Shown one piece after another: positions 45,856 through 46,643 of a stretch of 64,000 nt of DNA. Where the stretch lies: positions 64,001 to 128,000 of the forward strand of contig CAYLJV010000001.1 in NCBI GenBank assembly GCA_964384105.1, given 5' to 3'. A program made the position numbers and the translations under genes. The DNA is from Candidatus Hadarchaeota archaeon (lineage in GTDB: Archaea; Hadarchaeota; Hadarchaeia; Hadarchaeales; JAGGTB01). The number at the start of each line of letters is the position of its first letter. Position 1 is the first letter of the stretch. The notes below the pieces were generated by a model, which saw only the letters and a program-made list of their open reading frames with translations, made no database searches and was not told where the DNA came from.

Positions 45856-46086
45856 ATGGACGTAATTACTGGTATAGCACTAATTTCGGCGGGCCTTGCT
45901 ATAGGTGGCGCTGGCCTAGGTTCTGGGATAGGATTGGGTAAAGCGGGGGAAGGAGCAGCTCATGGAGCTGAGGATAATCCCAAGACTTTTGGTCAACAGC
46001 TGGTACTTGCTACTATACCGATGACGCAGGCTATTTATGGTCTTATTGTGGCTATCTTGGTTTTGAAAAATTTTGGAGTGATCTAA
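45856..46086 (+). CDS. atpK: A-type ATP synthase c (K) subunit paralog 1, lacking the ion-binding Glu
   Basis: Single hairpin, [22 protein letters not shown] in place of PETQ. Confidence 0.85.
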
Positions 46087-46132
46087 GTAACAAGATTAAT
46101 AAGCAAATTGGGAAAATTCTAGGTGAGAGAAA

Positions 46133-46378
46133 ATGGTTGATGTGGGATTGGAAATTGGACTGGGTATAGCTGCGATAGCTTCAGGTCTTGCCATAGGAGC
46201 GTCAGGCCTTGGTTCGGGTGTTGGTCAAGGGATAGTAACTCGAGCCGCTGCTCAGGAAGCTGAAGAGGATCCTGGTTTCTTTGGTAAAGGGTTATTATTG
46301 TCAGTATTACCTCAGACTCCCGTAATATTTGGATTAGTGGTAGCTATCTTGATCTTAATAAATTCACAGTTATTTTAA
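46133..46378 (+). CDS. atpK: A-type ATP synthase c (K) subunit paralog 2, lacking the ion-binding Glu
   Basis: GLGSGVGQG, EEDPGFFG; PQTPVIFG in place of PETQVIYG. Confidence 0.85.
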   Translation: MVDVGLEIGLGIAAIASGLAIGASGLGSGVGQGIVTRAAAQEAEEDPGFFGKGLLLSVLPQTPVIFGLVVAILILINSQLF

Positions 46379-46409
46379 AAATTAAAAATATAATCGGAGG
46401 TAGAAAAAT

Positions 46410-46643
46410 ATGGTTACGTTAGAAGCAGCCGTTGCAACTATCGGTGCAGGTCTTGCTATAGGCGGTGCCGGTCTAGGTTCTGGAATAGGTCAGGGTATTG
46501 CCGCAGCCGCGGCAGCCGGAGCTACAGCTGAGGACCCAGGTTTCTTTGGTAGAGGTTTGGTATTTACAGTGCTTCCAGAAACTCAGGTTATCTACGGCTT
46601 GGTTGTTGCCATACTTATCCTAGCTGGTGTAGGAGTGCTCTAA
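46410..46643 (+). CDS. atpK: A-type ATP synthase c (K) subunit paralog 3 with an intact Na+-type motif
   Basis: GIGQG plus PETQVIYG; strong GGAGGT ribosome-binding site. Confidence 0.93.
   Translation: MVTLEAAVATIGAGLAIGGAGLGSGIGQGIAAAAAAGATAEDPGFFGRGLVFTVLPETQVIYGLVVAILILAGVGVL

Follow-up and report, generated by a model that had tools for sequence, protein, structure and literature searches.

Free glutamate-less c-subunit hairpins in a hadarchaeal A-type ATPase operon: candidate ion-blind members of a mixed rotor ring

The number of ions that a rotary ATPase moves per ATP is thought to be fixed by the size of its rotor ring or, for V-type enzymes and a small number from archaea, by the fusion of a blank hairpin to a working one. 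A stretch of 64,000 nucleotides from a Candidatus Hadarchaeota archaeon (assembly GCA_964384105.1, contig CAYLJV010000001.1, positions 64,001 to 128,000 of the forward strand; hereafter the window) raises the question of whether blank hairpins may also serve such a ring as free proteins, as its A-type ATPase operon carries three separate single-hairpin c-subunit genes, K1, K2 and K3. The residues of the three products lead us to propose, with moderate confidence as far as co-assembly is concerned, that K1 and K2 are ion-less members of one rotor ring with K3 and cut the number of ions per ATP.

Three single-hairpin genes and their ion-site residues

K1: 45856-46086, plus strand, 76 aa, GLG...IPMTQAIY, PF00137 match of 60.5 bits
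K2: 46133-46378, plus strand, 81 aa, GQG...LPQTPVIF, PF00137 match of 58.4 bits
K3: 46410-46643, plus strand, 77 aa, GQG...LPETQVIY, PF00137 match of 75.9 bits

By profile all three products belong to the Pfam ATP-synt_C family (PF00137), with scores far over its curated cut-off of 24 bits. Each gene starts with ATG, stops with TAA and occupies a reading frame different from those of the other two, with spacers of 46 nt between K1 and K2 and 31 nt between K2 and K3; the ribosome-binding motifs read from the sequence are AGGTGA before K2 and GGAGGT before K3, with a weaker motif before K1. Three frames, three stops and spacers with ribosome-binding motifs thus rule out a single fused gene that was split by a sequencing error, and none of the products carries two hairpins in one polypeptide in the manner of NtpK. 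The first-pass annotation of the window had read the array as three tandem genes of 76-81 aa with their own starts, stops and motifs, and its coordinates and sequences proved exact.

Parts of the same array were also recovered from independent assemblies. A 1066-bp ENA contig encodes a 99% identical variant of K1 (P0001) and a 91% identical variant of K2 (P0157), and contigs of the public runs X3, X4 and X6 lie over parts of the array, including a 602-nt contig of X6 that starts within K1, at its 3' half, runs through the whole of K2 and reaches into the 5' part of K3. These independent contigs with the same genes indicate that the K1-K2-K3 array is not an assembly artefact. Run X4 also has a contig with K1 and K2. 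A word-based search with K1 matched only its own 99% variant, and a search of genome contigs for related loci with K1, K2 and subunit I returned nothing, or distant bacterial c genes only. A degenerate DNA pattern for the K1 motif gave no match in genome contigs and one in metagenome contigs (L141, which is no c gene), and the pattern for the K2 motif gave none in metagenome contigs.

In the Na+ site of Ilyobacter tartaricus, one subunit (A) gives Glu65 and Gln32, and another (B) gives Ser66, the Val63 carbonyl and the stabilising Tyr70 (PMC2359735, Mulkidjanian et al., 2008). In NtpK of Enterococcus hirae, the site combines Glu139 of helix 4 and Gln110 of helix 3 with Leu61, Thr64, Gln65 and Tyr68, all four from the outer helix (helix 2) of the first, Glu-less hairpin, so that the premise from which the locus was first interpreted, namely that Gln and Glu of one hairpin meet Thr, Gln and Tyr of its neighbour, is correct according to the description in PMC2359735. 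From the same source we took as the Na+ ligand set the Gln in helix 1 and the Glu in helix 2 followed by Ser/Thr (+1), Gln/Thr (+2) and Tyr (+5) (PMC2359735).

K3 contains both halves of this site, GQG in helix 1 and P-E-T-Q-V-I-Y in helix 2, and hence a complete ligand set; the Q / ETQ..Y combination is also present in all 10 K3-family sequences aligned. In K1 (GLG; P-M-T-Q-A-I-Y) the helix-1 Gln is replaced with Leu and the Glu with Met, and the neighbour-side Thr, Gln and Tyr are retained. K2 (GQG; P-Q-T-P-V-I-F) retains the helix-1 Gln, carries Gln in place of the Glu and has exchanged the neighbour-side Gln for Pro and the Tyr for Phe, so that two of its three lent side chains are gone besides its own Glu. 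The helix-2 carboxylate is accordingly present in K3 (Glu) and missing in K1 (Met) and K2 (Gln). K1 and K2 are c-subunit members in fold and sequence, yet unable to carry an ion, and the ATPase of this genome (G000) is probably Na+-coupled. The residue assignments of the first-pass annotation, with K3 as the sole bearer of the full motif, were borne out, as was its residue logic: K1 retains exactly the ligands lent to a Glu-bearing neighbour, and K2 has lost most of both halves.

The pattern of K1 is not confined to K1. In the lineage formed by K1 and the second, Glu-less gene of its relatives (c', see below), Thr, Gln and Tyr are invariant in all 11 sequences, the Glu position is Met or Gln and never acidic, and the helix-1 Gln is gone in 10 of the 11. 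K1 and 10/11 sequences of the lineage therefore display the signature of a V-type first hairpin, which lacks the Glu and the helix-1 Gln and keeps Thr/Gln/Tyr. For comparison with fused proteins, the best 150 library matches were used, of which 70 have exactly two detected hairpins and 55 combine a blank first with a Glu-bearing second hairpin. In these 55 proteins, hairpin 1 has T-Q-Y in 46 and the helix-1 Gln in none, with Gly, Met, Gln, Ser or Ala at the Glu position, and hairpin 2 has T-Q-Y in 2 and the helix-1 Gln in 54. Judged from these residues, lent ligands appear to be kept only where the next hairpin has a site, and a hairpin's own Gln only alongside its own Glu.

As for the K2 lineage, the variant P0157 retains the Gln, Pro and Phe of K2, and P0171 (63% identical to K2) is also Glu-less with Q/PQTQ..Y, so T-Q-Y is still present there. 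In the blind family the cytoplasmic loop reads GEAGEG..HG or ATQGSAEGTKEHS and is systematically unlike the Ala-rich loop of K3. Among 64 more distant single-hairpin matches to K2, 63 (P0172-P0234) have Glu in place of the helix-1 Gln (E/PETI..F and similar), which amounts to two carboxylates per hairpin; several of them are named Woesearchaeota or Archaeoglobi by source.

Relatives, selection and origin

Sixty-six Hadarchaeota genomes were searched, and a c gene was found in 62. As a rule a genome has a single c gene of 152-176 aa in which two hairpins are fused, the first with LPGTQGIYG and the second with VELYAILG or a similar motif. Free single hairpins occur in Hadarchaeota only in the genus of the window (G000 and G002-G006) and in G007, G034 and G041, that of G041 being haloarchaeal-type and Glu-bearing, and free Glu-less hairpins were found in 5 of the 66 genomes. 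Short PF00137 frames in G033, G056 and G062, considered as further free hairpins, are fragments of fused genes at contig ends. Genome G065 has two fused c genes on contigs C10 and C18 (4 PF00137 matches); the second could belong to another ATPase or stem from a duplication or from contamination (3%).

K3 has orthologues in the operon K genes of the related genomes G002, G003, G004 and G006, with 83-92% identity over the stretches that align. A K3-like gene lies within an I-K-E-C-F-A-B-D operon in G002-G004, G006 and G007, as far as the contigs extend, with H matched ahead of I in G007 only. The Glu-less c' gene of G003, G005 and G006 encodes 76 aa with GAG...MPQTQAIYG and is located ~1.5-2.2 kb upstream of an EndA-TrpRS pair, which adjoins the DUF61/D end of the ATPase operon in G003 and G006 (the G005 contig stops within TrpRS). 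The Glu-less gene of G004 (77 aa, GQG...MPQTQVVYG) stands directly behind an EndA-TrpRS-like pair. At the corresponding site of G000 there is no c gene between the homologue of a 133-aa gene (40815-41186) and EndA (41623). The same site in G000 holds an intron-bearing tRNA gene directly upstream of the tRNA-splicing endonuclease gene EndA (41623-42159):

Intron-bearing tRNA gene: 41316-41454, plus strand, Rfam RF00005 match of 45.2 bits, the 71-position model being spread over 139 nt, without an ARAGORN call

Further Glu-less sequences came from large protein collections, namely P0164, P0165 and P0166, the last with MPMTQAVYG, as well as P0031, which is 64% identical to K1, has M/TMTQ..Y and is assigned by NCBI to a single-cell genome of a candidate division MSBL1 archaeon. 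The absence or decay of K1 and K2 in relatives, set beforehand as the outcome that would speak against a mixed rotor, is therefore not what the survey returned: K1-lineage genes are found in four other species of the genus and in metagenome and single-cell records, and P0171 is a relative in the K2 lineage. What did not recur is the tandem triplet for which the first-pass annotation had proposed to look.

A library of 1.84 billion proteins also contained many-hairpin fused c subunits: P0002 with 12 hairpins (1042 aa, the first of them blind), P0003 with 10 (784 aa), P0004 with 15 (1139 aa) and P0011 with 8 (631 aa); the 13-hairpin protein of Methanopyrus is of comparable or smaller size. G001, a genome of the same genus (L060, G001:C8), retains a c gene with two fused hairpins. 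The I subunit of G001 shares just 27% identity with that of the window, against 68-84% for A, B and D; the membrane sector was apparently exchanged in the lineage of either G001 or the window. In the A genes of G003 (L056), G004 (L058) and G001 (L060), tblastn matches are split by ~1.3-1.6 kb near residue 240-310; the extra sequence looks like an intein, and the A gene of the window is without it.

We asked whether the blind genes are maintained. Between c' orthologues, G006 and G005 differ by 32 synonymous and 0 non-synonymous changes (dN/dS 0), G006 and G003 by 36.5 and 8.5 (dN/dS 0.043), and G003 and G005 by 32 and 7 (dN/dS 0.048), in line with the values of 0.035-0.13 for K3 orthologues in pairs with computable dS. 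Values that involve K1 or K2 and any paralogue or orthologue are unusable owing to saturated synonymous sites (pS 0.67-0.92), and population variants were used instead. Contigs of four public runs were aligned to 45700-46800, and 40 of the 72 differences, from contigs of X4, X6 and X7, were classified: among these 40, 14 of 14 in K2, 2 of 2 in K1 and 17 of 18 in K3 are synonymous, and 6 are intergenic. The 602-nt X6 contig accounts for 21 differences; 19 of them are among the 40, and 18 of the 19 are synonymous changes in coding sequence. All indels lie within the K2-K3 spacer, including the 6 letters that this contig lacks. Reading frames are intact in at least 14 blind-hairpin sequences from several species. 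Given these synonymous-only variants and the fact that P0157 keeps the odd residues of K2, K1 and K2 are functional proteins under purifying selection, and the dN/dS check proposed at the outset came out in favour of maintenance, with 0-0.048 for c' and exclusively synonymous differences in K1 and K2 among those classified.

It is conceivable that K1 and K2 are neutral or decaying duplicates of K3, given that tandem paralogues arise and collapse by recombination, of which a joint K1/K3 contig from run X4 (discussed below) may be an instance. We regard this as highly improbable in view of the 32 synonymous against 0 non-synonymous changes between c' orthologues, the K2 differences, synonymous in 14 of the 14 classified, and the frames that stay intact across species.

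The origin of the blind hairpins was addressed with a maximum-likelihood tree (47 hairpins, 78 columns, LG+G4), the topology of which is moderately secure. All free Glu-less hairpins form one clade (support 92/94), which is divided into a K2 lineage of K2, P0157 and P0171 (92/78) and the K1/c' lineage of 11 sequences (95/92), with K1 as sister to P0031 (98/95). This clade groups with the hadarchaeal K3 genes (94/93), and the fused first hairpins, including that of G001, form a clade of their own (99/98). A larger quick tree is concordant and places K2 beside the hadarchaeal free hairpins, not beside terminal hairpins. K1 and c' as first hairpins split off from a fused gene are thus rejected with the same moderate security, as the free blind hairpins do not share descent with the fused first ones. 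Taken at face value, the tree suggests a single loss of the Glu, in a duplicate of the single-hairpin K gene, and a later split into two lineages, both of which G000 keeps within its operon.

Because the tree parts the free blind hairpins from the fused first ones, their shared residue signature would be convergent, the free form being its unfused version. A ligand-loss pattern that seems to have arisen twice would be strong indirect evidence for the sharing of Na+ sites between neighbouring hairpins, and a hairpin-1 signature that was reached by an independent lineage is hard to explain unless its bearer stands in a ring directly before a Glu-bearing hairpin. In fused proteins, the same pattern is imposed by ring membership.

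Operon context and the proposed rotor

The remaining ATPase genes of the window are as follows.

Stem-loop in the K3-E spacer: 46654-46690, plus strand, minimum free energy -23.1 kcal/mol, z -2.54, with 3 of 200 shuffles folding equally well
Subunit E: 46719-47342, plus strand, open reading frame of the A-type ATPase operon
Subunit C: 47356-48519, plus strand, open reading frame of the A-type ATPase operon
Subunit F: 48520-48843, plus strand, open reading frame of the A-type ATPase operon
Subunit A: 48848-50653, plus strand, open reading frame with a PF00006 match
Subunit B: 50656-52053, plus strand, open reading frame with a PF00006 match
Subunit D: 52059-52694, plus strand, open reading frame of the A-type ATPase operon
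Subunit I (a subunit), stator: 53504-55489, minus strand, PF01496 match
Subunit H, stator: 55492-55806, minus strand, weak V-ATPase_G-type matches

K1-K2-K3 are hence encoded alongside other rotary ATPase subunits, in the order K1-K2-K3-E-C-F-A-B-D on one strand, followed by a DUF61 gene, with I and H adjacent; further Pfam matches in the rest of the operon (46719-52694) are PF01991, PF01992, PF01990 and PF01813. The stem-loop behind K3 may be an element for transcript processing or attenuation that sets the abundant ring genes apart from the remaining operon. The block from K to orf100 (46410-53461) is inverted relative to I-H (53504-55806) in G000, as compared with the ...I-K-E-C-F-A-B-D-DUF61 order on one strand in relatives, and this inversion makes the stator and rotor genes of G000 divergent units.

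In a PF00137 search of the G000 genome (1.62 Mb, 12 contigs, 90% complete), K1, K2 and K3 were the only c-subunit genes, and a single A, a single B and a single I gene are present. With one A/B/I set and no further c gene, any role of K1 and K2 in a rotary enzyme belongs to the ATPase of K1-K3 itself. A role outside the ring, as an oligomer of their own, an assembly chaperone or a membrane insert unrelated to rotation, would fit the position of the blind gene beside EndA/TrpRS rather than within the ATPase operon in G003, G004, G005 and G006. Yet this locus adjoins the D/DUF61 end of the operon in G003 and G006, the blind genes of G000 are within the operon, and the conserved residues are exactly the ion ligands of the ring interface, for which reasons we consider an outside role very doubtful.

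Turning to the mixed ring that we favour, K3 would bear the ion and K1 and K2 none, all within a single A-type ATPase ring. K1 would stand directly ahead of a K3 and supply Thr, Gln and Tyr to complete the Na+ site of the latter, and K2 would stand ahead of another blind hairpin. Since a lent side as degenerate as that of K2 (T-P-F) typically marks a hairpin placed before a blank one, we infer the order K3(n)-K2-K1 for G000; the order predicted for the other species would be K3(n)-c'. The outcome would be an unfused counterpart of the V-type double-hairpin rotor, in which hairpins outnumber ion sites, and the rotor of G000 probably moves fewer Na+ per turn than the size of its ring suggests. 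Fewer Na+ per ATP would mean a higher thermodynamic gearing in pumping and a higher threshold in synthesis. That the hairpins assemble into one ring, their order and ratio within it, and the direction in which the enzyme works in the cell are what we infer here rather than show.

Rotors with blank hairpins do function, as V-type c subunits support ATP synthesis (PMC9171764). Several points nevertheless weigh against a mixed ring in G000. The tandem K1-K2-K3 array is found in the window's species only, and the Glu-less gene of relatives stands at a separate locus. A search for sequencing runs turned up none of RNA. No blind gene was found in the 87% complete assembly of G002, the closest relative by K3 (91%), although its expected locus is at a contig edge: upstream of EndA only 700 nt remain to the contig start in G002, and 58 nt in G007. 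The tree was built from 78 columns with a bootstrap that is not fully settled. In addition, a 617-nt contig of run X4 (record 3; 45700-45906 plus 46464-46560) joins 45906 to 46464 and skips 557 nt, which brings codon 17 of K1 in frame with codon 19 of K3. This contig could stem either from natural recombination that left one Glu-bearing c gene or from chimeric assembly; if it is real, there is a strain with a single Glu-bearing c gene, and K1 and K2 would be dispensable. Finally, in the F-type enzyme of Bacillus PS3, ATP synthesis and proton pumping were lost, along with DCCD-sensitive hydrolysis, once a single hairpin of a fused c10 ring carried Gln for Glu (Mitome 2004, cited in PMC8809890), which means that a blind hairpin can poison a ring of single hairpins. 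The A/V-type stator of G000 would need to tolerate blank helices, as V-type stators do.

The same PS3 result, in which a single E56Q hairpin inactivates the enzyme (cited in PMC8809890), also suggests that the blind hairpins could act as a brake, stalling the ring in a dominant-negative manner, for instance against wasteful ATP hydrolysis or Na+ leak in starvation, and the separate loci of the relatives would permit the conditional expression of such a brake. In G000, however, the blind genes precede K3 and are by position co-transcribed with it, so the brake would always be made. The invariant Thr/Gln/Tyr of the K1/c' lineage moreover suggests that the Na+ site of the neighbour must work, which a mere block does not need, and V-type stators are described as routinely passing blank helices (PMC9171764). 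A brake is therefore improbable in our judgement.

How many blind hairpins a mixed ring would hold is a separate question. They might be fixed, single-copy symmetry breakers, each ring having a single blind hairpin or K2-K1 pair for assembly or central-stalk docking, like A. woodii c1 or yeast c'', in which case the ion/ATP ratio would be slightly lower and not adjustable. This would agree with the only characterised prokaryotic hybrid ring, which has exactly one odd subunit in ten as described in PMC9171764, with the loops of the blind family, which are unlike that of K3 and would fit a distinct stalk contact, and with the ribosome-binding motif of K1, which is weaker than those of K2 and K3. 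On the other hand, there is nothing to hold a free hairpin to a set number of copies, and a blind gene outside the operon at its own locus in four species makes independent regulation possible. We hold a single-copy symmetry breaker to be possible but unlikely; it is a special case of the mixed ring and not its opposite.

Conversely, the ATPase of halophilic Hadarchaeota may owe its gear ratio to free ion-blind hairpins that enter the ring in proportions adjustable by expression, with K3(n)-K2-K1 as the order in G000. Taken as a whole, this is a speculation that we consider possible but unlikely. The shift between synthase and pump that the first-pass annotation derived from an expression-set ratio would be just as speculative. 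In most species the own locus and promoter of the blind gene would let expression change the Na+ per ATP, and in G000 two blind kinds with complementary ligand losses could bring the ring down to one site per three hairpins, and thereby to a high-pressure Na+ pump. For an expression-tunable stoichiometry, the separate locus of the blind gene in four species is circumstantial evidence. If this gearing is real, it would be the first rotor with an ion stoichiometry that is not hard-wired by ring size or gene fusion.

Comparison with known rotors

A literature search that covered neither subscription journals nor supplements turned up no account of an archaeal ATPase whose Glu-less c subunits are free proteins; what it found covers fused 1-, 2-, 3- and 13-hairpin archaeal c subunits and the hybrid ring of Acetobacterium woodii. 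The novelty would lie in a rotor that resembles the V-type in its lowered number of ion sites and is put together from unfused parts. The blank hairpin of G000 is free, has been conserved until its synonymous sites were saturated, and appears to have evolved apart from the fused forms. It offers a test, set up by nature, of whether blank members are tolerated in a ring of single hairpins; in laboratory Glu-to-Gln mutants of an F-type enzyme they are not, according to the work cited in PMC8809890. It may further represent an intermediate or an alternative in the transition of ATP synthases into V-type pumps that is discussed in PMC9171764 and PMC2359735, and a possible route to adjustable gearing.

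The ring proposed here would resemble those of E. hirae NtpK and of the fused c subunits of Thermococcales and Hadarchaeota, which have one Na+ site per two hairpins (PMC2359735). In both cases a blank hairpin without the Glu and the helix-1 Gln keeps Thr/Gln/Tyr for the next site. In G000, however, the blank and ion-binding hairpins are separate genes, and no covalent link fixes the stoichiometry of the blank ones; the free blank hairpins also do not derive from fused first hairpins by the moderately secure tree (92/94 versus 99/98 clades).

In eukaryotic V-ATPases, the heteromeric proteolipid ring is formed by the paralogous products c, c' and c'', each of which has an essential Glu. These are four- or five-helix proteins and not free single hairpins.

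The F1Fo enzyme of A. woodii (c1 + c2/c3) likewise has several c genes in one operon, and its ring mixes ion-binding and blank hairpins, with nine single hairpins and one V-type c in a working Na+ ATP synthase (PMC9171764). The enzyme of A. woodii is F-type and carries its blank hairpin in fusion with one that has a site; in G000 the blank hairpins are free, of two kinds, and associated with an A-type enzyme.

The c subunit of Methanocaldococcus jannaschii consists of three hairpins (PMC2359735). Fused relatives of this type, such as P0015, have x/PQTQ..Y in the first, Q/PETQ..Y in the middle and Q/SETF..F in the last hairpin, a pattern with counterparts in K1, in K3 and, for the neighbour side, in K2. 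The triple-hairpin c subunit of M. jannaschii has two sites. It differs from the G000 genes in being one fused polypeptide whose last hairpin keeps the Glu where K2 has Gln, and K2 itself groups with the hadarchaeal free hairpins and not with the terminal ones.

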